A DNA stretch of 64,000 nucleotides, taken from an uncultured Spirochaetia bacterium. GTDB taxonomy: Bacteria > Desulfobacterota_D > UBA1144 > Nemesobacterales > UBA2774. The notes beneath the pieces were generated by a model. It was given only the letters and a program-made list of their open reading frames with translations, was not told where the DNA came from and searched no databases. The translations under genes were made by a program, and so were the position numbers. The stretch spans positions 517 to 64,516 of the forward strand of contig CAZUDM010000016.1 in the NCBI GenBank assembly GCA_964618635.1. The letters run 5' to 3'. Below, in pieces: positions 9,761 to 58,719 of the stretch (its first letter is position 1; each line of letters starts with the position of its first letter).

Positions 9761-10564
9761 CTAAGCAGTTCGTGTCCTTCGCCTGATAACGAGAAGCGAC
9801 GCTATTCCCGCGATCCCGGCGAAGGCAATCAGGCCCCATTCGGACATCGTGGGAATAGGGGTAATCGCGCCTCTGAGGGCTATCGTGCAGGCCGTCCACG
9901 GTACCGGAATCCCGATGGGGAGGATAAACACATCCGTCTCCTCGGCAATCGGGAAATAGCTGCTGATTCCTACTATAAAAGAGAATTGTCCCGAAGTGCT
10001 GACCGCCACGGACGTGAATATCGCCTCGACAATTTCCTGGTTGGGCTGGAGTAACTGGTCCCCGCCTATTGCAATGGCGTGAAGCACTGTCGAGTTTGCT
10101 TCCGTAGTTACCGAGGGCGCGGTTATGTTGCCCGAGATTCCGCTCTGACACGCAGAGGCGATGATAGGATCGTCAGCATCCGCTCCGCTGTATCTCAGTA
10201 TGGCGGCGGTGAAGACGTCGGTATTCTGCGTCCACCTGCACGTGGTCTCGGCGAGGCCCTCTCCGGCAGGCCTCGTATATACGCCGAGTATGCAGCTTCC
10301 TCCGCCGCAGCTCGACTCCGCGGCCGGAGACCAGCCGCCGGGAATCGGCGTCAGGAAATTATTGGCGCCGGACGAGAACGTCGAGCAGGCGACGATGTCT
10401 AGGTTCCCCGGTGCGTCGTTGAGGAGCTCGACTGTACCCTCTGTGCCGTCAAAGTCGGCTCCGTTGCCGATGCCGCCGCCCGTGAGAGCTATTCGCGCAT
10501 CCGCGGGCGCGGAAAGTAAAAGGAAAAAAGCGAGCAAGGATAGAACGGTGGATAATCTGAGCAT
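9761..10564 (-). CDS. IPTL-CTERM sorting-domain surface protein
   Basis: Signal peptide; C-terminal IPTMSEWG + transmembrane helix + RRRTRTA. Confidence 0.85.
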   Translation of the reverse strand: MLRLSTVLSLLAFFLLLSAPADARIALTGGGIGNGADFDGTEGTVELLNDAPGNLDIVACSTFSSGANNFLTPIPGGWSPAAESSCGGGSCILGVYTRPAGEGLAETTCRWTQNTDVFTAAILRYSGADADDPIIASACQSGISGNITAPSVTTEANSTVLHAIAIGGDQLLQPNQEIVEAIFTSVAVSTSGQFSFIVGISSYFPIAEETDVFILPIGIPVPWTACTIALRGAITPIPTMSEWGLIAFAGIAGIASLLVIRRRTRTA

Positions 10565-10726
10565 GTCGCATCCTCCAAACGGGATATGCGATTTTATCAC
10601 ATGACGGCCGGTTTATGCAAATTAGCGAAATGAAAGGTATTCAAAACTCATACAGGCGCAGCTTCGCAGCGTGACATGCTTAAAGCGGGGGAAGAGAAAT
10701 ACGTAGTAAGAATTATGAGAGAGCTT

Positions 10727-11414
10727 CTACTCGTGAATAATCCTGTGCAGTTTATCGTTTATGGCTGCCAGTCTTCCGGCGCGGGTTTCATATGAGAGGT
10801 GCGCCTCGAGAGCTTCCTGCATAGAGGGAGATTCCATTATTGTCCTAAACCACTTCGTCAGGTATTTCCTGACTTGCGTGGATACCTTTAATACTTCATC
10901 GGCGAGCCCGATATTGTTGTCCAGTATATAAACTATGTCCTCGAAGTCAGGACTGGTGCGCGGATCGTTTTGCCCTTCCGCTATAGGCCTCGAATTTTGC
11001 GGCTAAAAAATGCGGAGTATCCAGAATATTGATTTCGATGCCTCCGGCATCGACTTTTAGGAGATGTTTCATACCGGATTTAAACCACCTGTTTGAAGGT
11101 GCCCATCCGACTTCACTTATGCTCATTACATCGACGAGTATGTCCCCGAGCCTGAATCTGCACATGACATTCTCGAAAGGGTCTCGTGTAAACCCTCTTT
11201 TTGCCATATCTTCCTCAAGCCTGTTTAACTCGCTTATGCCGGTTATTTGAACGACTATGTCTATATCCTTCGTTGGCCTGACGTCCTCCGCTGCAGGGTC
11301 ATCAGCGTAAAGGGCCACTACTGCGCCGCCGACGTACACTACCCGGTTGTTAATGTCCCCGAGCGCCCTGGCGACTGTTTTTATTACTTCGATATTCGCA
11401 GCTCTGTTTCTCAT
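10727..11414 (-). pseudogene. Nucleotidyltransferase (AbiEii/AbiGii-like) with frameshift at ~10968-10971
   Basis: VGG...RPTKDIDIVV NTase motif, FLAAKFEAY; after a shift in an A4 run the frame continues NDPRTSPDFEDIVYILDN...IIHE* to 10727. Confidence 0.75.
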
Positions 11415-11415
11415 T

Positions 11416-11931
11416 CTAATATGAGATCCTTGCTTTAATTTCCTTTAAAGCCACAGCCGTTTCTCTCGACTTTCCCACTCGTACCGCATCTACGAGGGCT
11501 AATAATTCGTGGAGGCGTTCGTCTCGATAGCATGCTAAAGGTGCTGCCGGGTAAAGCGGCTCGATAGCTTGACCCCTGAAGTTTCCTGCTGCGAACGGCC
11601 ATACGTAGTCGGAGCTACTTGCTATTATATTCCTCAGAGGGGGGGCCGAGTGCGCCGTTGGTAAACCACGTGCGATTGGCCCGGGCTGCACTGGAAAGAC
11701 GTATCTCAGGCCATGCTCTATGAATTCGAGAAAAGTGTTTTTCATAACCGTCTTTTTATCCGAGCTCAGGAGCCCTGAATAGGAGGATCTGTGGAGAGAC
11801 TCGCTTACCTCACTAGCGCTGATCTGCAGCTTGATCGAAACGTCCTTCATCGTCCACTGCTCGTTTTCTAACGAAGCAATCCATACTAAGATAGCTATGT
11901 CCTGTGGTCTCATGCCTCCATGTTTCTTCAT
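11416..11931 (-). CDS. HTH-containing partner protein (AbiEi/antitoxin-like)
   Basis: MRPQDIAIL...ISASEVSESLHR HTH; HGLRYVFP, PTAHSA, IEPLYP, LLALVDAVRVG; abuts the NTase gene. Confidence 0.7.
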   Translation of the reverse strand: MKKHGGMRPQDIAILVWIASLENEQWTMKDVSIKLQISASEVSESLHRSSYSGLLSSDKKTVMKNTFLEFIEHGLRYVFPVQPGPIARGLPTAHSAPPLRNIIASSSDYVWPFAAGNFRGQAIEPLYPAAPLACYRDERLHELLALVDAVRVGKSRETAVALKEIKARISY

Positions 11932-15349: not shown

Positions 15350-16204
15350 TCAAGCCGTCCTCGTTCTTCTCCTTATTGCCCAGATCGAAGCCGCGGCCGT
15401 CAGCAGGACGAATACTCCCATGCCCCATTCCGACATGGTGGGTATAGGCGTGACCCGGTCGTCCGCCCACAGCGCAATGGTGCATGCCCTCCAGGAAGCC
15501 TGCGCATCGGGCTGCCCGATCTCCGTCGCGAGGTTGACGGGGAACGGGTCCACAGGGCCGCTCTCTTCGGCGACGGATGCGAACTCTCTCAGAAAGACGC
15601 CCTGGAAATTGGTTCGATTGTCGGATATCGCCAGCGAGTAAATGCTTCCCTGAGCGACTTCGTTGGATGTGATCATCTGGTCGTTAAAGCTGGCGCCGAA
15701 GGTAAACACCCTGACGATTCCCGAGCCTTCGTTTACAGTTATGGAAGGCGCGGTCGCAATCTGGCCGAATCCTGTCGTGCATTGAATGTCTGATATCGGC
15801 TCGTCGGGATCGACCCCGATCCACCTGAATACGCCGCTGACGTAAACCGTGGCCGGGTCTGTCCACCTGCAAAGGCCTTCCCTGCTGTCGGGGCTCGACG
15901 TATTCTGACCCCAGATGCCGGCGACGCAGGTGCCCTGCGGCGACGGGGCGCAGGACCCTCCCCCGACGGTGTTGAGCGTATCGGGCAGCGGGTCGAGGAA
16001 AGTGTTGCCGCCTGTCGAGCTCGTGGCGCAAACCAGGAGCTCGAACGACCCCGGCGGGCCTGGAGGCAGCTCGAAAGGGCCCTCGCTGAACGGTATTGCC
16101 TGGTCGCCGATGCCGTTTGCGAACCCGTCGACCAGCTCGATCTCGGCCTTCGAAGCCGCCGCAAATGAAAAAGCCAGAAGTAAAGTCAATGTAAGGAATT
16201 TCAT
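15350..16204 (-). CDS. IPTL-CTERM sorting-domain surface protein, paralog of 9761-10564
   Basis: Signal peptide MKFLTLTLLLAFSFAAASKA; IPTMSEWG + TM + RRRTRTA. Confidence 0.85.
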   Translation of the reverse strand: MKFLTLTLLLAFSFAAASKAEIELVDGFANGIGDQAIPFSEGPFELPPGPPGSFELLVCATSSTGGNTFLDPLPDTLNTVGGGSCAPSPQGTCVAGIWGQNTSSPDSREGLCRWTDPATVYVSGVFRWIGVDPDEPISDIQCTTGFGQIATAPSITVNEGSGIVRVFTFGASFNDQMITSNEVAQGSIYSLAISDNRTNFQGVFLREFASVAEESGPVDPFPVNLATEIGQPDAQASWRACTIALWADDRVTPIPTMSEWGMGVFVLLTAAASIWAIRRRTRTA

Positions 16205-16557
16205 CGAATTCACAATTACAATCCTCCTTCTTTTTTGACCTCGAATCATAGCACGGTTAAAACAAAAATTAAAGAGTATATAAAAAATAATATAGTGTAA
16301 TTGCAGATAATTAGACCGCACTCATATTAGATAACTTTAAATATTGATACGGACCGGGCAGGCCCCCGGCCGGATTAAGGATGAGAGAAGATGAGAGCCT
16401 ATTACTGATGCGGATATTTCGGGTGTTTTGAGGGGTGTAGTGTTGTGGAGACCGGCCCCCCGCGGAGGCCGGCCGTGAAAAGCCGTTGACTTGAATCCCC
16501 GCGCCGGACTAAACTCTTAGTGTTAGGCATGTAAATTTCCATAGGGGGGAATCAGTC

Positions 16558-16986: not shown

Positions 16987-17044
16987 TTATTCCGTTCCGG
17001 TCACATCGGGCGCGGTTGGCAGACCTGCGAGGCCCCACGCGATT
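16987..17044 (-). repeat. Left att-like direct repeat (duplicate MFS 3' end)
   Basis: 54/57 identical to 20340-20396; encodes IAWGLAGLPTAPDVTGTE*. Confidence 0.9.
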
Positions 17045-17091: not shown

Positions 17092-17120
17092 TTGTTGTAT
17101 TATGATAATAGTTGTACAAT
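17092..17120 (+). promoter_or_regulatory. Putative sigma-70 promoter with palindromic spacer
   Basis: TTGTTG-N17-TACAAT; TATTATGATAATA palindrome at 17098-17110 in the spacer. Confidence 0.45.
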
Positions 17121-17127
17121 GATGTTT

Positions 17128-19155
17128 ATGACAAAAAAATCCGAAGTCGATTACCTCAGCTTAAAAGAAGCTGCCGAATATTTGGGTATATCTACTCAAA
17201 CCCTCCGACGATGGGATGCCTCGGGAAAACTCAAATCAGTTAGACATCCCTCTAGTGGTTATCGATATTACCGAAGAGCTGATTTAGAGCCGTTTCGTTT
17301 AGAATACCGTAGAGCTGAGATGCAATTGTCCGAGGATGAATACATATTTCAATCTTTGACTGTGGATATAGAAGGAAATGCAAAATTACGTGAACCTCAA
17401 CGAGACGCTCACAAAGCTGTTCGTAAGCATTTCAACAGCAATGATGAGCATGTAATTCTACAGATTCCTGTTGGTTGTGGAAAAACTGGAATTATCGCTA
17501 CACTTCCTTTTGGTATTGCTAACGGACGAGTTCTTGTTGTTACTCCAAATCTGACTATTCGCAGAGGCGTTTCTGAAGCCTTGGATATCTCTAATCCTAA
17601 GAATTTCTGGCGACGAACAGGCGTTATTCATGACTTTTCGGACGGTCCCTTTAGCGCTATTCTGGACGGAGTGTATGCCAATCTACATGATTGCAATGAA
17701 AGTCATTTTGTCGTTACAAACATTCACCAATTAGCCAGTTCGGCTGACCGCTGGCTACCTCAATTTCCTCCTAACTATTTTGATATGATAATGGTGGACG
17801 AAGGTCACCATAACGTTGCACCAAGTTGGGCTAAAGTTTTCGATAGGTTTCCTAACGCAAAAGTTATAAGCCTTACCGCAACACCTTTCAGGGGGGATGG
17901 TGTAAGACCCATTGGTAAAGTGATTTACAAATATCCATTTACTCGTGCAATGCTCAACGGTTATATCAAGCAGATCCATTCAAGGAACGTAGCTCCAGAG
18001 GAATTGTATTTTACTTTTCGTGATGATAAGACACGTCACACTCTAGATGAAGTCCTAGAGTTGCGCGAAGAGGCATGGTTTAGACGCGGAGTTGCTGCCT
18101 CTCCTGAATGTAACGGGCATATAGTGGATGCCAGTTTAGAGTATTTGAATAAGATGCGAGAGCGAACAGGTTACAGGCATCAACTTATAGCTGCCGCTTG
18201 TTCTGTTGATCATGCACGGCAAATACGCTCATTGTATGAGGAACGAGGTTACAGCGCTAAAGAAATTTTCAGTGAAATGGATAAGGATAAACAGGAAAAT
18301 GTATTGGATTCTCTAAAGAATGGACGTTTAGATTGTATTGTGCAAGTGCAGATGCTAGGTGAAGGATTTGATCACCCACCTCTAAGCATAGCGGCAATTT
18401 TTAGACCATTTAGAAGTTTGTCTGCGTATATTCAGTTTGTTGGAAGAGTTATGCGTGTCATACATGAGAACGAGCCGGATCACCCGGACAATCATGCTTT
18501 CATAGTTTCTCATGTCGGACTTAATAATGATGAACATTGGCTAGATTTTCGAGAGCTTGATTTTGATGATCAGCTTCTGTTTCATGAGTGGATAAATGCT
18601 AGTGATACCGAAGATGAAGTAAATGGCAAAGGTAAGTCTAGACGTTTTGAGAATCTTATTCGTGTGGATAACGAAATTGTAGGTGATTTTATTAGAAAGT
18701 CTTTTTTGGACCCTGACGATGATAGAGTGCTAGATGAATTTTTGAACAAGGAAGTTGGCGGAGGGTTTAAACTTGGCGATTTATTAACAAGAGATGAACT
18801 TAAACAACGCTTAGAGGAACGTGGGAAGATTGAACAAGAGACTTTAGCTGAGTTTCCGATACAACCACAACGTCGTCGTGTTCAGGCTAGAAAAAGGCTT
18901 AACGAGCGCGCGAAGAGTGTTGCAAATCGTGTGTTAGATGACTTAGGGCTCAAAGGCAGTGGAAGAGAAATTACTAAAAAACAGGCGAACAGAGCCGAGA
19001 TGATTGAGCGCATGAATAAACGTGTAAACAAATATCTCGGAATAGAAAAGAAGGAAAGAAATAAAATTAGTACTGAGCAAGCTGAATCTGCATTTGATGC
19101 TCTTGATAAATTAGGTGATGAATTGCGTGAAGAAATACGAAAAGAGATGGAGTGA
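17128..19155 (+). CDS. MerR/excisionase-like HTH fused to SF2 (ResIII/DEAD-like) helicase
   Basis: YLSLKEAAEYLGISTQTLRRWD HTH; IPVGCGKT, DEGHH, LTAT, GEGFDHP, QFVGRVMR. Confidence 0.88.
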   Translation: MTKKSEVDYLSLKEAAEYLGISTQTLRRWDASGKLKSVRHPSSGYRYYRRADLEPFRLEYRRAEMQLSEDEYIFQSLTVDIEGNAKLREPQRDAHKAVRKHFNSNDEHVILQIPVGCGKTGIIATLPFGIANGRVLVVTPNLTIRRGVSEALDISNPKNFWRRTGVIHDFSDGPFSAILDGVYANLHDCNESHFVVTNIHQLASSADRWLPQFPPNYFDMIMVDEGHHNVAPSWAKVFDRFPNAKVISLTATPFRGDGVRPIGKVIYKYPFTRAMLNGYIKQIHSRNVAPEELYFTFRDDKTRHTLDEVLELREEAWFRRGVAASPECNGHIVDASLEYLNKMRERTGYRHQLIAAACSVDHARQIRSLYEERGYSAKEIFSEMDKDKQENVLDSLKNGRLDCIVQVQMLGEGFDHPPLSIAAIFRPFRSLSAYIQFVGRVMRVIHENEPDHPDNHAFIVSHVGLNNDEHWLDFRELDFDDQLLFHEWINASDTEDEVNGKGKSRRFENLIRVDNEIVGDFIRKSFLDPDDDRVLDEFLNKEVGGGFKLGDLLTRDELKQRLEERGKIEQETLAEFPIQPQRRRVQARKRLNERAKSVANRVLDDLGLKGSGREITKKQANRAEMIERMNKRVNKYLGIEKKERNKISTEQAESAFDALDKLGDELREEIRKEME

Positions 19156-19158
19156 CCT

Positions 19159-19386
19159 ATGCCAAAAATAAGAGACGTGTTGATTCCACTATCAATAGAA
19201 ATTGCACAAAAAAAACGTAAGTGTCATCGAAATGATAAACATTCGATAGAGAAAAATGAAACTTGTTTAGTTATTAAAACGGGACCTTACAATGCTAGAA
19301 AGAATTATTGCCTTAGTTGTGCAGATGAGATTCTAACCAAAGCATCAACAAAACTCTGTGACTTGAGAAATAAACTAAACCTCTAA
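19159..19386 (+). CDS. Small basic Cys/His protein (75 aa), possible Zn-binder
   Basis: RKCHRNDKH...C...YCLSC; starts 3 bp after the helicase stop. Confidence 0.65.
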   Translation: MPKIRDVLIPLSIEIAQKKRKCHRNDKHSIEKNETCLVIKTGPYNARKNYCLSCADEILTKASTKLCDLRNKLNL

Positions 19387-19390
19387 GAGA

Positions 19391-20230
19391 CTATAAATTC
19401 CTGAACTCTTTATAAGCCAACATTCGCATCAATGCTTCGTCATCTCCAAAGAGAGTATAATCGTTTATATTCATTGAATATAAATTCTCCAAAACTTTTT
19501 CTTTTTCATCACGTTTGAGAATGAATTTTTTCATTCGATGATTTTCCGGATGATTTTCGACGGCTACTTCATGTTTCATGAAGTAAGTCTCTGAGTCGAT
19601 TTTTGCTCGACATATCGTATACACACTTTGCTGCTTATGATGCCTGTTGTGGGTAGCTATATAAGGCCCTATATGATCGATGATTGGATCATTTGAAGGG
19701 CCGCCACGTACTCTACCATCCCAATTTTTATAAGCGTAAATTGCGACATCTTCATTCTTTGTTGCATGTCTGAACGCAAAAAAAGCGGCTATATAATACG
19801 AAGCTGTCCAGTCAAGTATTGGTGTGGGAAATCCATGATGCCGTGCAAAGCATATAAGCTCTAAATGTTGGACTGGTCCTGTTCGTTCCATTTTGATTTT
19901 CTGAGGGGTAAATGTCTCAAAATGTTCTTTGGTGAGAGAATTTATAATAGACACAGTAGGAGATAGATAAGAATAATACTGATGGGCTAGATAGATATCT
20001 GTGTCATTTCCTATTTCATCTCTCAAAAATCTTTCGAGAGATGTCTCTAGCGTCCAGGAAGCGCGGGAATGCCCTCTGTATATCCAATTGCTATGTGCTA
20101 CACTTACCACTCTTTCCTTCGCCGAAGCTCTTATTGCTTTGACTTCGGCAATATCGGCTTTAGCTTTTTCTTCAAACTCACTCCATGCTAACGGAGTACC
20201 TTCACCAATGATTTCTAAACCTTTTTTCAT
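19391..20230 (-). CDS. FRG-domain protein
   Basis: WIYRGH....L.TSLER; RHHGFPTPILDWT.S..IAAFFA. Confidence 0.9.
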   Translation of the reverse strand: MKKGLEIIGEGTPLAWSEFEEKAKADIAEVKAIRASAKERVVSVAHSNWIYRGHSRASWTLETSLERFLRDEIGNDTDIYLAHQYYSYLSPTVSIINSLTKEHFETFTPQKIKMERTGPVQHLELICFARHHGFPTPILDWTASYYIAAFFAFRHATKNEDVAIYAYKNWDGRVRGGPSNDPIIDHIGPYIATHNRHHKQQSVYTICRAKIDSETYFMKHEVAVENHPENHRMKKFILKRDEKEKVLENLYSMNINDYTLFGDDEALMRMLAYKEFRNL

Positions 20231-20338: not shown

Positions 20339-20396
20339 CTATTCCGTTCCGGTCACATCGGGCGCGGTCGGCAGACCGGCGAGCCCCCACGCGATT
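20339..20396 (-). repeat. Right att-like direct repeat (current MFS 3' end)
   Basis: Matches 16987-17044. Confidence 0.9.
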
Positions 20397-21505
20397 ATGA
20401 CGAGGAACCCGACCGTCAGCGGGGCCGAGGGATGGAGGTGATAGAGATACCCGGCCATTATGCCGCCCGCGGAAGAGCCCGCGAACGACAGCAGGTTGTA
20501 AAGCCCCGTCGCGGCGCCCCTGTTCGCCTGGCTCACCCTGTGCGTGACGAAGGCGGGAAGGATCGACTGCATTATCGTGTGCCCCGCGAAGAAGAGCATC
20601 CCCGCGCCGTAGAAAATCAGCGCGGCCTTCGAGAGCACGGGATAGGTCAGGAACGCGAGCGCGACGAGCCCCCAGCCGGCCTTGACTACAACTCCCATGC
20701 GCCCCTTCTTCTCGGCTATCCTCACGGCCGGGAACACGAACAGAGCGGTCGGTATTAGGGATATGAGATAAACCTTCCACAGCGCCGCGTCGCTCACCCC
20801 GAGGGACGTCCACGTGAGCGGGTAAACGAACACGAAGAGGTTCACGGATAGCGAGACGACGACAGTCGCCAGCAGAAGCCTTCTCATCTCCGGCATGCGG
20901 AGGAGCGCCCTGAACCCCGCGCGCTCGCCGACGGGCTGCCCGTTTTCTATTTTCGGGAAGAAGAAGAGAGTCAGCAAAAGAGCGAGCGCGCCGGACCCTG
21001 CGAGAACGTAAAAGACGCTCGAAAATCCCAGCTTAGCCGCGAGGTAGGGCCCGAGTATTATCGCCACGAGGAACGCTATTCCTATGGTTATGCCGACTAT
21101 CGTGAACGACTGCGCCCTCACCTGGGGCCGCGTGAGGTCGCCGAGGGCGGCGATAGCGACGGAGCTGACCGCTCCCATGCCCTGTATGATACGCGCGATT
21201 ATAAGCTCGTTTATCGTATTCGCCTCGGCGCACAAAACGCTTCCGACCGTGAATATAAGGAGCCCGGCGATGAGGACCGGCTTTCGCCCGAGCTTGTCGC
21301 TCGCCCATCCGAAAGGCACCTGGAACACGCTCTGCGCGAGGGCGTATATGCCGAATGCGACCCCGGCCATCGCTATGCTGGAGCCGGGATACTTTTCGGC
21401 GTAGACGCTGAACACGGGCAGTATGAGGAATATGCCGAGGAGCCTCGAAGCCATGATGATGGCCACCGTGACGACGGCCTTAAGCTCAGTGTAGTCCAGT
21501 CTCAT
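20339..21505 (-). CDS. MFS transporter (YajR-like)
   Basis: GWASDKLGRKP motif A; ARIIQGMGA; about 12 TM segments. Confidence 0.9.
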   Translation of the reverse strand: MRLDYTELKAVVTVAIIMASRLLGIFLILPVFSVYAEKYPGSSIAMAGVAFGIYALAQSVFQVPFGWASDKLGRKPVLIAGLLIFTVGSVLCAEANTINELIIARIIQGMGAVSSVAIAALGDLTRPQVRAQSFTIVGITIGIAFLVAIILGPYLAAKLGFSSVFYVLAGSGALALLLTLFFFPKIENGQPVGERAGFRALLRMPEMRRLLLATVVVSLSVNLFVFVYPLTWTSLGVSDAALWKVYLISLIPTALFVFPAVRIAEKKGRMGVVVKAGWGLVALAFLTYPVLSKAALIFYGAGMLFFAGHTIMQSILPAFVTHRVSQANRGAATGLYNLLSFAGSSAGGIMAGYLYHLHPSAPLTVGFLVIIAWGLAGLPTAPDVTGTE

Positions 21506-54675: not shown

Positions 54676-57600
54676 ATGGAAAAATTACCGACAAGATCTT
54701 CGCAACACGAAACTGGTGATAGAGCAGACAGAGAATTCGAACAAAAATGTCCAGATAACTGGGCATTAGAACCAATTATAAGAGATTATGGACGCGATTA
54801 TATCGTTAGTATTTTCAGGAACAAATCAATAAAAGAAGAATTCAATGTACAACTAAAAGGTAGCAGGAATCCCACATATAGTAGTGGAAATGATTATATA
54901 AGCTTCTCCTTGGAAGTAACTACAGCTAAATACCTTCTCAATTTTGAAGAACCTTCTATGTTAGCAATATGCGATGTAAGCAAAGACGGGAAACCCGTTT
55001 ATTGGGTCTGGTTGAACGAAGATATAAAACGTATCGAAGAATTAAACCCTCAATGGCAACAACAGATATCAATTGCATTCAGAATTCCTATCTCTAGAGT
55101 ATTGGATGAAACTAGTCATAAAGAAATAGAGGAATATGTCCACAAATATTTAAGCATAAAAAAATTGGATTACGCAGCTGGCAGTGTACTGCGCAGCGCA
55201 TTTAACAAAGATTCTGAGCGTTTAATTGAACAATATGCAGACTCGCCAGGAGAATATATTGAAAATGAAGTCATAAAACCTCTGAGTAATACGGGGATGT
55301 TTAGTGTCACTACTACGAAATCAGGTCCTGAAATTGAAGCTTATAACGAAACTGAAAAAAAACTAATAAAGAAGCTCGATCAAATCTCTACCTATTTAAA
55401 TTCAACTCAAGATCATTTGGCAAAGGAACTTCTGGAAGAAATTGAGTCAGAAATATCGCTGACATCACATAAAGAAATTAAGGCACGTTATTTAAATTCT
55501 ACAGGAGTATTAGCCATATTTAATGAAGAAACTCTAGAGGCTTTGGAATACTATAAAAAAGCCAATGCTCTAGTTCCTACAGAACCCAAATATATAACAA
55601 ATCTACTTTATGCAGAATTTGAAATCGCAAAAAATAAGAAGAACGGGAAACTTGAATTACCTTCTGATTGGGAAGAGAGGCTTGGAAAAGTTTTGGAACA
55701 TCAGCCTGATTTCATTAACTCCATAAGAATCAAGGCCCAGTTTTTAAGTGAAACTCAGGGGCCAAATGAAGCAGAAGCTTTTCTTAGAAGCTCAGAACAT
55801 TGGGATAAAGAGCAGTTAGGTTTCCTTAGTTTATTGTCTGAGTTGTATTACAGCGTTGGAGATATAGATCGCGCTCTTAGTTTATTTCGAGAAGCGGAAC
55901 CATTAATGAATGATAGTCCTTGGTATCTTTGGACTCAATACGGATCGAAATGTTTAATAAAAGCCTTGGATAATGATGAATTTACTTTTAGAGGTTTTGG
56001 GCCTGCAAATCTCGATTTGGAATTATTAAATAAAGCATATGATTGTTATAGCAAGGCGATTAAATCTATAACCTCAATTGGCTATCCAACTCAATCTGCT
56101 CCAGCAATTGTGAATTATTCAGTTGTTTGCATGCTATTGGGCAAGCCCGAAGAATCAGATGCGTTATGCATCAATTACTTACAAATCCATCCTAATCATT
56201 TTGATGTTGGCGGTGCTTTAGCCGCAAGTCTATTTCGTCAAGGTAAAGCGGATAAGGCATTTCCCTACGTTAAATCCATTTATGATTCTAATCCTAATGG
56301 AAAGGCAGAGTATAGAAACTACGCACTCGTTCTCTTAGCTTGCGAAGATTACGAAAGTTTAATTAGGCTCATCCAAGAAAGGGAGAGCTGTGGGTTCGTT
56401 GATAAAGAAGAAGAAGGGCTGTCACGAGAATTAGCGTCTGTATCTTTATTTGAGCTTGGTTCCTACGAAGAATCAAGCAGACAAATAGAAATAATGCGAA
56501 ATGATTCAAGCTTGGCGAAACAGGCTTTCATTACAGAAGCATCTATCGCTCATAAAAATAGAAAACCGAAAGAAGAAATTCTATCTATTTACAGAAGAGC
56601 CCTTAAAACTTTCCCTGATGACGAGGAAATATTAACCAAATTTATAATTGAATTGGGCACAGATGCGAATAGTTATGCTAAAGAGATAAAGGAATCAATT
56701 GAAACTATTACTGCTGTGAGACAGTTAATGCCGGAGGAGTTTTACCTTCTAGGTAATGCGTATATGAATTTAGATCTCACTGATGAAGCCGTTGATATTT
56801 TTACTAAAGCGGAAATCCGTTTTCCTTCTGACTACAGATTTATATGTGAGAAAGCAAATGCCTACATGAAAAAAGGGGATGACGAAACCGCATTTAAATT
56901 ACTTCAAGAATATACTGCCAAAGCAGGAAAAAGTTTTGAAGTATTGCGCAGTACAGCTGCACTTGCTGTAAACACCGGGAGAATTGATGACGCTATAAGA
57001 CTGTTTCATTCAGCCTTAAGCAAAAGTCAGGATTCAACCGAAAAAGGACTACTGCATTGTCAACTATGGCATCTCAAACTTAGACGACAAGATCCCCCCA
57101 AAGATATAATGAGGCATGCTGTCGAATTTGGTAAAACTATAAAAGATGATTCTGAGGCAGAAGCTTCGTACTTGATGATGTTTATGTTTTCGCCGCATCT
57201 CGATTCAGATACAGATGATGAAATAAAGTCTTGGGTGGAAGAATTCCGAGAAAGATTAGAAAAATTTAAAATTCAATTTCCAGAATCAAAAATCTTTAGG
57301 GCCATAACAATACCGGAAGGGCTCGAGGGTGAGGATTTTCTAAATGAATTGCTAGCGGAAATGTTTAAACTCGTTGTCGAAGATGTCTTAGGAGCGGTTC
57401 CTTTCCAGTTTACTTCAAGGTCAATGCCTTGGTTTATTACAATGAGAGCAAAACTATTAAGAGAATCAGATTCTGTTTTCATGTTCTGGAACATATGTAT
57501 TAATTCAAATGATTATTCCCATGCTATACATATATGGGATGGCGCAACTGATTTAGATGAGGAAAACGTTTTTGCATTAGAAGCCAAGGAGGTATGTATA

Positions 57601-58719
57601 GATCTCACGGCTTTGCTTACGCTTTACGAATTGGAGTTGCTAAGTTTATTCCCAGATGAATTTAAACAGATTTATGTACCGTATCATACAAAAATCGTAA
57701 TTGATAAATCACTTTATGCTCCATATGGCGTACATCCCATTGCAAAGAAATTAGAAGATTGGAGGATAGAGAATCGAGGCAAGATTAGGGTTTTAAGAAC
57801 CCATAATGATACATACATAAATGATAATTTTGAATTATCTCAGGGAAAATTATGGGTGAAAACTAATACTGGCATCCCAGAAATTTTTGAAGATGACCCT
57901 GATTATCAAGCTATGAGGCTATCTAAAAATCTAGGTGCGACTCTTTATTCCGATGAATACCTTTCGCGGTATTGGTCAATAAAAGAAAATAAAATTAGGG
58001 CATTCTCCACATTGAGTTTTATACATCGATTGAAGGTAAAGAAGATAATTTCTAAGAATCAAGAAGCCGAATTATTATCACAAATGATACAAAGGAATTT
58101 CAGATTCGTGCAATTCAATTCTACTCATTTGTTTGAAAGGCTTCAATATATTCTTAGTATTAAAGGTGTAACACATCTTTCTGATGACTTAAAAGGGGAT
58201 GCTACATTCAATGCCTTTTTTAAACAATTTGGTGATGCTGAATTAAAAAGTAAGTCTCTTATACATATGGCAACTGATCTATGGGTAATGATCTTGAAAA
58301 ATGAAAGGATAGCTAGAGATTTTGAAAGAAAATCCATTTACGAGATAGTAATTAATTGCATGTACCTGCCAACCTTTTCGTACTCATTTAATAAGGAAGA
58401 TTCAGAAGAAAGAATTGCTCAAATATGGATGATATTTATGTGGAGATCGTATCAAGAACGAACGGATTTTTTTCAAAGGGCATGGTCATGCGTGAAAAGT
58501 TGTTGTGAACGTATGTTTAACAACGATCAGGACAAGTGTGAAAGAATATTATTTAAAAAGATACCTTTTATGCTGACTGGCTTAATTAGTAAGAACATTA
58601 GCGATCCGACGAGTCAAGTTACAACTCACGTAAATATTACGAATATGTTTGATTTTCAAGACAAAAATAAGATTGAAACTTATTATGCTGAAAATCCACC
58701 GTCTTATTTCAAAGCTTAA
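54676..58719 (+). CDS. DUF4365 nuclease - TPR - PIN-like multidomain protein (AT-rich, putative defence)
   Basis: RDYGRD...FNVQLKG PD-(D/E)xK-like motif; helical TPR-like middle; CIDLTALLTL...LYSDE PIN-like region. Confidence 0.75.
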   Translation: MEKLPTRSSQHETGDRADREFEQKCPDNWALEPIIRDYGRDYIVSIFRNKSIKEEFNVQLKGSRNPTYSSGNDYISFSLEVTTAKYLLNFEEPSMLAICDVSKDGKPVYWVWLNEDIKRIEELNPQWQQQISIAFRIPISRVLDETSHKEIEEYVHKYLSIKKLDYAAGSVLRSAFNKDSERLIEQYADSPGEYIENEVIKPLSNTGMFSVTTTKSGPEIEAYNETEKKLIKKLDQISTYLNSTQDHLAKELLEEIESEISLTSHKEIKARYLNSTGVLAIFNEETLEALEYYKKANALVPTEPKYITNLLYAEFEIAKNKKNGKLELPSDWEERLGKVLEHQPDFINSIRIKAQFLSETQGPNEAEAFLRSSEHWDKEQLGFLSLLSELYYSVGDIDRALSLFREAEPLMNDSPWYLWTQYGSKCLIKALDNDEFTFRGFGPANLDLELLNKAYDCYSKAIKSITSIGYPTQSAPAIVNYSVVCMLLGKPEESDALCINYLQIHPNHFDVGGALAASLFRQGKADKAFPYVKSIYDSNPNGKAEYRNYALVLLACEDYESLIRLIQERESCGFVDKEEEGLSRELASVSLFELGSYEESSRQIEIMRNDSSLAKQAFITEASIAHKNRKPKEEILSIYRRALKTFPDDEEILTKFIIELGTDANSYAKEIKESIETITAVRQLMPEEFYLLGNAYMNLDLTDEAVDIFTKAEIRFPSDYRFICEKANAYMKKGDDETAFKLLQEYTAKAGKSFEVLRSTAALAVNTGRIDDAIRLFHSALSKSQDSTEKGLLHCQLWHLKLRRQDPPKDIMRHAVEFGKTIKDDSEAEASYLMMFMFSPHLDSDTDDEIKSWVEEFRERLEKFKIQFPESKIFRAITIPEGLEGEDFLNELLAEMFKLVVEDVLGAVPFQFTSRSMPWFITMRAKLLRESDSVFMFWNICINSNDYSHAIHIWDGATDLDEENVFALEAKEVCIDLTALLTLYELELLSLFPDEFKQIYVPYHTKIVIDKSLYAPYGVHPIAKKLEDWRIENRGKIRVLRTHNDTYINDNFELSQGKLWVKTNTGIPEIFEDDPDYQAMRLSKNLGATLYSDEYLSRYWSIKENKIRAFSTLSFIHRLKVKKIISKNQEAELLSQMIQRNFRFVQFNSTHLFERLQYILSIKGVTHLSDDLKGDATFNAFFKQFGDAELKSKSLIHMATDLWVMILKNERIARDFERKSIYEIVINCMYLPTFSYSFNKEDSEERIAQIWMIFMWRSYQERTDFFQRAWSCVKSCCERMFNNDQDKCERILFKKIPFMLTGLISKNISDPTSQVTTHVNITNMFDFQDKNKIETYYAENPPSYFKA

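Follow-up and report, generated by a model that had tools for sequence, protein, structure and literature searches.

This report concerns a two-gene locus in a 64,000-nucleotide (nt) stretch of DNA from an uncultured Spirochaetia bacterium (contig CAZUDM010000016.1), which is called the window here and whose positions are counted from its first letter. The first gene (17128..19155, plus strand) encodes a 675-amino-acid (aa) protein in which a helix-turn-helix (HTH) domain is fused to a superfamily 2 (SF2) helicase, and the second (19159..19386, plus strand) encodes a 75-aa protein that is likely a zinc finger resembling zf-PARP. A sequence-only reading of this DNA had proposed that the pair is a novel defense or abortive-infection module located on a genomic island. 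Homolog searches, structure comparisons, and surveys of gene neighborhoods indicate that the two genes constitute a real and widespread cassette within the helicase-centered modules of defense islands, apparently unnamed in the libraries searched.

The open reading frame (ORF), its translation, and its Pfam domains all agree with the initial description of the larger product as a 675-aa protein with a MerR/excisionase-like HTH at its N terminus and SF2 motifs. The proposed start codon, the ATG at 17128, is supported by a TACAAT hexamer that ends 7 nt upstream, and a TTG at 17092 is an alternative start. The HTH (aa 9-57; 17152..17298, plus strand) is of the MerR/excisionase/BldC type by Pfam, NCBIfam, and Protein Data Bank (PDB) profile matches. 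Its Pfam matches lie above the curated cut-offs (MerR, 1.2e-10, 41.5 bits versus 28.2; HTH_17, 6.6e-10, 39.5 versus 27; MerR_1, 7.4e-10), as does the match to the NCBIfam 'excise' model (29.3 versus 28.8), and the NCBIfam model HTH_BldC is matched at 9.6e-5. The domain is an excisionase/MerR-type HTH as represented by TIGR01764, PF00376, and PF12728. Among PDB profiles, the matches are Xis Gp37 of a mycobacteriophage (4j2n) and entries 6amk and 6ama, which are BldC-DNA complexes. MerR_1 aligns over positions 2-47 of 69 only, and the helicase follows directly. A MerR-family regulator proper, in which the HTH is joined by a coiled-coil dimerization helix and an effector-binding domain, is not what this protein represents.

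The ATPase/translocase core (17383..18459, plus strand) comprises a ResIII domain (aa 86-255, motifs I-III, 1.2e-24) and a Helicase_C domain (aa 349-444, motifs IV-VI, 5.6e-12), both above curated cut-offs and separated by an insert at aa 256-345. An alignment of 52 homologs shows no variation in the columns for GCGKT, DEGHHN, LTATP, and QFVGR, and the protein is an SF2 helicase of the ResIII or XPB/RadD-like kind. Beyond the core lies a charged, helical C-terminal region (aa ~470-675; 18535..19152, plus strand) that is conserved, has many invariant columns, and is proposed to be the docking site of the small subunit. The last ~200 aa, scanned alone, gave no Pfam match and likewise no match to PDB profiles, and the tail is predicted to be helical by AlphaFold2 (AF2), with confidence scores (pLDDT) of 70-90 from aa ~530. 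Because no domain is recognized there, the initial statement that the helical tail shows no evident nuclease holds.

The helicase has homologs in more than 120 database clusters, which are 62-76% identical to it and unchanged in Pfam architecture. Many have been named 'DNA repair protein RadD' by the Joint Genome Institute (JGI), and others carry the name 'excisionase family DNA binding protein'. The NCBIfam equivalog for RadD (NF053632) is matched with 76 bits against a cut-off of 720, over aa 341-447 only, so the RadD label on these homologs is an over-annotation. The closest solved relatives are RadD, archaeal XPB, UvrB, HsdR, and the SauUSI-like entry 7clg, in each case for the ATPase core only. 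The AF2 model of the helicase has low confidence overall (pLDDT 66), and its Foldseek matches likewise speak for that core alone. The protein also matches the phage 'DNA helicase' family phrog_16 (1.8e-60). A phage origin was considered and rejected, given that no match among 50,697 phage records exceeds 27% identity. Assignment as a type III Res subunit was rejected as well, because aa 450-675, where a PD-(D/E)xK domain would be expected, hold no recognized domain and no adjacent methylase is conserved.

As the initial reading had stated, the second ORF begins 3 nt downstream of the helicase gene (at 19159, after the stop at 19155), and a GGAG lies 8 nt upstream of its ATG. The AF2 model (pLDDT 88) predicts a three-stranded sheet followed by a long C-terminal helix. 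All Cys and His residues of the original description are present in the window protein (C22, H23, H28, C36, C51, and C54), whereas conservation in the family corrects which of them matter. Among the 150 best family representatives plus the window protein (n=151), C22 is kept in 150, H28 in 139, C51 in 141, and C54 in 133, while C36 is weaker (117) and H23 is not conserved. The probable zinc ligands are therefore C22, H28, C51, and C54, a C-H-C-C set with the pattern C-x5-H-x22-C-x2-C that ~85-90% of the 150 best representatives retain, apart from one subclade considered below. The protein has no match in Pfam, NCBIfam (release 20, June 2026), PADLOC, or PHROGs. An exhaustive HMMER search returned 318 clusters at 50% identity, and the best 150 of these 318 are all stand-alone proteins of 64-171 aa; a word-limited search yielded 275 clusters at 90% identity, every one of them annotated as 'hypothetical'.

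Three weak but independent lines of evidence make it likely, not proven, that this small protein is a PARP-like finger. First, a Foldseek search of the predicted structure against the PDB places the Zn1/Zn2 fingers of PARP1 and the finger of DNA ligase III (Lig3) almost exclusively at the top (probability 0.97-0.99; root mean square deviation 2.1-3.1 Å over ~52 residues), with E-values of just 0.07-0.4. The same search against BFVD finds uncharacterized phage proteins and proteins annotated as zf-PARP or PARP-type. Second, the Salmonella ortholog has a sub-threshold match to Pfam zf-PARP (PF00645). Third, a low-probability hhalign alignment of 89 family members with the human PARP1 fingers, whose sequences were checked against PDB entry 2n8a, is in register, pairing ExAxxxRxxC with EYAKSxRxxC, IxKG with IxK(G/D), and YCxxC with YHxxC. 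A profile made from the degenerate small-protein alignment matched nothing meaningful in the PDB. Compared with zf-PARP of PARP1 and DNA ligase III, the predicted three-stranded sheet is common to both, whereas the ligand order is C-H-C-C rather than the C-C-H-C of the zf-PARP site (C-x2-C...H-x2-C). The small protein also stands alone, carries an added C-terminal helix, and scores below the Pfam threshold. In a clade with 42% helicase identity, the partner is more divergent (86-101 aa, CxxC...CxxC), and its spacing is C-x2-C-x26-C-x2-C.

Conservation of the pair across genomes, which had been named as a check on the proposal, is confirmed. In all 41 loci that have a full-length family helicase (33 plus eight fetched later), the helicase gene is followed directly by the small gene, and a hidden Markov model built from the 150 representatives matched exactly one ORF per locus. 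Conversely, when three close small-protein sequences were used to scan metagenomes, the helicase preceded the small gene in each of the three loci whose sequence extended upstream of it. The genes overlap by 8 nt or 1 nt, or are separated by a gap of a few to ~30 nt. The exception is Novosphingobium endophyticum (locus L005, 7551-8882), where the two ORFs, both intact, are separated by an insertion sequence (IS) element that encodes a DDE transposase.

A scan of one genome per species found 14 helicase loci, which in the Alphaproteobacteria belong to a metagenome-assembled Pseudomonadota genome, Mesorhizobium, Rhizobium, Methylopila, Novosphingobium, and Nitratireductor, and elsewhere to Marinicella (Gammaproteobacteria), Bythopirellula (Planctomycetota), and Verrucomicrobiia. 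Further look-ups added Nitrospirales and Hoeflea. In a plasmid collection, the helicase occurs at 58% identity in Rhodococcus and Mycobacterium and at 42% in Aminobacter, Rhizobium, Skermanella, and Paracoccus, and relatives lacking the HTH occur at ~35% in Salmonella, Klebsiella, Erwinia, Serratia, Hafnia, and Acinetobacter. The pair spans six phyla (the taxa covered being Alpha- and Gammaproteobacteria, Nitrospirales, Planctomycetota, Verrucomicrobiota, and Actinomycetota), plasmids, and predicted viral (IMG/VR) contigs, with helicase identity as low as 35%. Across phyla, the genes occur together and diverge together, and the patchy, island-borne spread together with 62-76% identity between phyla implies recent horizontal transfer. 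No E. coli copy of the plasmid variant was found by megablast or blastn.

Several minor observations attach to these loci. Four low-GC IMG/VR loci (L039-L042) encode HTH-less helicase relatives (~41% identity over aa 74-471) that are translationally coupled to a different, Cys-free partner of ~105 aa, and the partner slot seems exchangeable in the wider superfamily. A conserved Cys-containing ORF of 155-160 aa with no Pfam match follows the small gene in four alphaproteobacterial loci (L002 10302-10766, L005 9137-9601, L010 10287-10766, and L014 10350-10832) and could be either an optional third gene or a separate neighbor. A conserved divergent 65-aa ORF upstream was considered and rejected, as the Bradyrhizobium and Hoeflea ORFs are unrelated.

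The region just ahead of the helicase gene (17092..17127, plus strand) reads as a putative promoter and operator, with a -35-like TTGTTG, a 17-nt spacer, and a -10 TACAAT at 17115-17120. With the -10 element ending so close to the ATG, the helicase transcript probably has no leader. The 13-nt direct repeat GTTGTAYWATGAT is present in two copies, at 17094-17106 and 17111-17123, where 0.08 would be expected by chance. Upstream sequences from different phyla are unrelated save for the last ~38 nt before the helicase ATG, which have in common a -35 TTGAC, two to three tandem 10-bp TTGCATAAGG repeats, a -10 TAAGGT or TAATGT within the repeats, and the ATG ~7 nt farther on. Each of 11 loci has a single copy of a 22-nt degenerate form of the TTGCATAAGG repeat, placed just ahead of the start, and the window repeats are a variant of this cross-phylum arrangement. 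The HTH-less helicase clade has no tandem repeats and ordinary Shine-Dalgarno leaders instead. A consensus scan for sigma-70 promoters and terminators gave no signal above shuffled sequences, and the proposed promoter was not listed by it. BldC and Xis bind direct repeats in a head-to-tail manner. The cassette HTH is of the same family and has tandem 10-bp direct repeats at its own promoter, whereas it differs in being fused to a helicase, and its repeat binding is putative. Overall, these features suggest a leaderless operon that might be autoregulated by the Xis/BldC-like HTH acting on the direct repeats.

Most neighbors of the pair are defense or mobile-element genes. By raw count, the pair is enriched next to known defense systems: at least 13 of ~30 non-redundant loci have a recognized system a few genes away or closer. 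In the window, the neighbor is an FRG gene of the PDC-S15 type. An integrase-bounded island of the Bradyrhizobium type, for which four different right flanks were seen, carries the pair with Hachiman, a type IIG-like methyltransferase, SNF2, and HNH genes. Elsewhere, the neighbors include Gabija (GajA 3e-279, GajB 4e-249), a dGTPase (1e-138), SIR2-APAZ with a short prokaryotic Argonaute, RmrA (5e-110), a type I restriction-modification (RM) system with GmrSD_N, PRTase-CE, and NADAR, and Mrr. PstI and DpnII RM systems accompany the pair on plasmids, and a set of DUF1156, DUF499, and SNF2-like helicase genes can be read as DISARM-like. DarT/NADAR, AbiEii, and PIN genes were also found, as were DUF3800, ubiquitin-like E1/E2 genes, and an SbcCD-like pair. 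Mobile-element neighbors include tyrosine and serine recombinases, type IV secretion and tra genes, relaxases, and ArdC-like proteins. The cassette travels as cargo of integrative islands, integrative and conjugative elements (ICEs), and plasmids, and lands next to known defense systems. Also present in five loci is a divergent upstream gene on the minus strand, encoding ~330-355 aa with a C-terminal HTH_37 (L003 310-1377, L004 6349-7936, L005 3844-5305, L010 6351-7418, and L012 6354-7878). Beside it in L004, L005, and L012 lies a phosphoribosyltransferase-like gene, and the arrangement is possibly another linked conflict module.

The island location proposed for the window copy is borne out by a drop in GC content and by flanking direct repeats. 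GC is 38-42% across ~17.0-20.3 kb versus 57-60% in the flanks, and this islet of ~3.3 kb is bracketed exactly by a 57-nt direct repeat with 95% identity (16988-17044 and 20340-20396; no strand assigned), whose 27-nt core has exactly two occurrences in the window against an expectation of zero. The right, attR-like copy forms the authentic 3' end of a gene for an MFS transporter (20339-21505, minus strand; Pfam MFS_1, 1e-41), and the left, attL-like copy, at the left islet edge, duplicates the last 56 nt of that gene plus part of its stop codon. The arrangement resembles the footprint of site-specific integration into a gene 3' end. Linkage of the integration to a tRNA was rejected, as the window has no tRNA gene. 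The ORF list gives only three ORFs in the islet and no integrase among them. With neither an integrase in the islet nor a tRNA gene in the window, the islet is probably a decayed element or one that is mobilized in trans only.

The third islet ORF is the FRG-domain gene (19391..20230, minus strand; Pfam FRG, 5e-20), which is convergent to the pair and lies only 4 nt from the stop codon of the small gene. Its product matches PDC-S15, a PADLOC candidate single-gene system, at 4.2e-41 and at full length (aa 16-269 aligned to profile positions 20-242 of 254). Partnership with the pair was rejected, because tblastn found no FRG match in the 21 loci tested, and the family is absent from the annotated neighbors of the loci fetched afterward. 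The FRG gene is an independent candidate defense gene that shares the islet and is not a conserved partner. The idea of a three-gene system in which FRG acts as effector of the helicase pair can point to the convergent position in the same islet, and it is very improbable in view of this missing conservation, the stand-alone PDC-S15 match, and the opposite strand.

The initial reading did not recognize the architecture as a named system, and a PADLOC check agrees. Against PADLOC-DB v2.0.0, a release dating from no later than 2023, the helicase gives only partial helicase or HTH matches of at most 50 bits (PbeA, 50 bits; mREase_IV; mad1), the small protein gives none, and the Salmonella plasmid orthologs likewise have no full component match. 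Membership in Hachiman, Gabija, PsyrTA, Pbe, Dpd, DISARM, or the PDC-S/M candidates was rejected, since full-length component matches to these are lacking in that library. Furthermore, Pfam, NCBIfam release 20, and PHROGs hold no family for the pair, and a full-text literature search on themes of helicases and zinc fingers in defense returned no paper that names or describes it.

Comparison with characterized systems helps to place the cassette. In both sequence and fold, the ATPase core is matched best by E. coli RadD and archaeal XPB, the latter of which likewise acts together with a separate protein, Bax1. However, identity is only ~20%, and the cassette helicase differs in its Xis/MerR HTH, its tail and partner, and its island-borne mobility. 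Hachiman HamAB, Gabija GajAB, PsyrTA/RqlHI, Shango, and PbeA of Pbe likewise combine an SF2 or SF1 helicase with a partner gene in defense islands, and the pair is often an immediate neighbor of such helicase-centered systems. Unlike them, it has a 75-aa zinc finger as partner rather than a nuclease or DUF1837 protein, and no effector is recognized. Type III RM Res subunits and type IV SauUSI-like proteins have the ResIII domain in common with the helicase, and the SauUSI-like 7clg is a top PDB sequence match, over aa 191-259 only. Here the helicase lacks a nuclease domain and no Mod or methylase partner is conserved with the pair.

The interpretation preferred here, with a probability of roughly one half, is that the pair is a self-contained, mobile two-gene cassette acting as an immune module against phages or other mobile DNA. 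A putative short promoter would drive an operon of the HTH-SF2 helicase and the apparently translationally coupled ~75-aa protein. The Xis/BldC-like HTH would bind the tandem 10-bp repeats over the -10 element and start codon and so autoregulate the leaderless transcript. The PARP/Lig3-type finger might sense discontinuities, such as ends, nicks, or junctions of single- and double-stranded DNA, in injected or replicating foreign DNA, and the C-terminal helix of the small protein could tether the finger to the helical tail of the helicase. Once tethered, the finger may load or license the XPB/RadD-like ATP-dependent translocase, which would then unwind or remodel foreign DNA or its replication intermediates. 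This remodeling might block replication directly or expose the foreign DNA to host nucleases; these outcomes are proposed because the cassette encodes no nuclease or toxic effector of its own. A more ambitious version, which is tentative and on balance doubtful, holds that a stand-alone prokaryotic PARP/Lig3-type finger senses ends or nicks in foreign DNA and licenses the translocase, in a new type of effector-less, widely transferred immune system, and that this finger is a bacterial relative, possibly even the source, of the eukaryotic break-sensing finger.

A number of points weigh against this immune interpretation. The defense role is guilt by association, and no effector domain (nuclease, NADase, or pore) is recognizable in either protein. 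The low-confidence helicase model says nothing about contacts between the subunits. An abundant alphaproteobacterial subclade has lost both C51 and C54, typically with an SYS motif in their place. The zf-PARP match of the Salmonella ortholog reaches only 17 bits (E=0.01) against a cut-off of 39.3, and the hhalign comparison has a pairwise E of 0.0087 and a probability of just 4.6%. The autoregulation proposal rests on a correlation between the HTH and the repeats. Thus, the proposal of a novel defense or abortive-infection module is partly supported: the pair is conserved, unnamed, and strongly embedded in defense-island contexts, whereas the link to defense is one of association, FRG is separate and no partner, the Cys/His set had to be corrected, and a competing role in mobile-element replication or DNA processing stands.

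That competing role, which is possible but improbable, is of a DNA-processing helper of mobile elements, in which the finger, as a sensor of nicks or junctions, would bring the helicase to the origin or primer of a plasmid or to the nick at the transfer origin. It would thereby aid replication, the unwinding of strands during conjugation, or establishment after arrival in a new host. Its best evidence, which counts against an immune function, comes from 13 related ColE2-like, MOBP mobilizable Enterobacterales plasmids of ~6-11 kb in Salmonella, Klebsiella, Erwinia, Serratia, and Hafnia (L024 1-2918, L029, and 11 more). Here, the rep gene (Replicase plus PriCT_1), the HTH-less helicase gene, and the small gene overlap one another by 11 nt and 8 nt. 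A RelE/NadS toxin-antitoxin (TA) pair also lies alongside in this plasmid group. In the same vein, two conjugative elements, an Aminobacter plasmid and a marine ICE, have the pair beside traG and a relaxase. ArdC-like genes are nearby in three contexts, and the match of the helicase to the phage 'DNA helicase' family phrog_16 also speaks for this role. However, replication and transfer genes are missing from the vicinity of the pair in most loci, and the islets of the window and of Hoeflea hold the pair plus small or defense genes only. Plasmids of Acinetobacter and Paracoccus carry the pair next to RM systems, at a distance from their own rep genes, and the cassette has its own conserved, putative promoter. 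Ti-type TraA relaxases carry a helicase domain of their own, which also counts against this role. The scarcity of replication and transfer neighbors, the RM-side location on plasmids, and the separate promoter are the reasons why this role is ranked below immunity. If it were correct, the pair would define a new kind of accessory module that serves small enterobacterial plasmids in replication or transfer.

An abortive-infection pair of the TA kind, operating in the manner of PsyrTA/RqlHI, is unlikely. The free helicase would be toxic and the small protein a labile or titratable inhibitor, such that phage infection frees the helicase and cell growth stops. In its favor are the layout, in which translation of a small partner is coupled to that of the large enzyme ahead of it, the features of tight autoregulation, the lack of a separate effector, and a weak PsyrT match of the C-terminal domain of the helicase (7.3e-6). 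However, this similarity is confined to the generic Helicase_C domain, and the small protein has the predicted fold of a nucleic-acid finger rather than an inhibitor-like one. Moreover, the Novosphingobium IS element splits the genes with no evident loss of the helicase ORF.

Still less probable is an accessory host DNA-repair module, in which a RadD-like helicase and a break-sensing cofactor ride on mobile DNA. RadD and XPB are the closest solved relatives, the JGI annotation names many members after RadD, and the fingers of PARP and Lig3 are repair sensors. Set against this are the RadD equivalog score, which falls far below its cut-off, the patchy distribution with its sign of recent horizontal transfer, and neighbors that are immune genes rather than repair genes.

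If the immune interpretation is correct and the cassette is protective, it would be a widespread immune module present in at least six phyla and carried on chromosomal islands, ICEs, and plasmids. It would join a sensor of DNA discontinuities to a motor with no recognizable killing domain, a logic unlike that of the nuclease-coupled helicase systems known so far. A function would also be provided for several hundred clusters of small proteins that now form a family without annotation, and for a helicase that part of the public annotation misnames 'RadD'. Finally, it would place a PARP-type break finger in bacterial conflict systems, which would bear on the origin of eukaryotic damage sensors.

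Other regions of the window also deserve mention. Two adjacent genes in a lower-GC patch at 10947-11931 (minus strand), encoding 155 aa and 171 aa with no Pfam match, correspond to PDC-M21, a two-gene candidate system of PADLOC (B, 3.8e-39; A, 3e-48), and represent a second candidate defense locus, ~5 kb from the pair. The ORFs at 9761-10600 and 15350-16321 (both minus strand) have a common hydrophobic and basic C-terminal tail that ends in ...IRRRTRTA and resembles a sorting signal; the product of the latter ORF has no Pfam match. A second low-GC island extends over ~53.5-58.8 kb (GC 36-41%) and includes a gene at 54676-58719 (plus strand) for a 1347-aa protein that has no PADLOC match, bears a DUF4365 domain at its N terminus, and contains a long TPR region.

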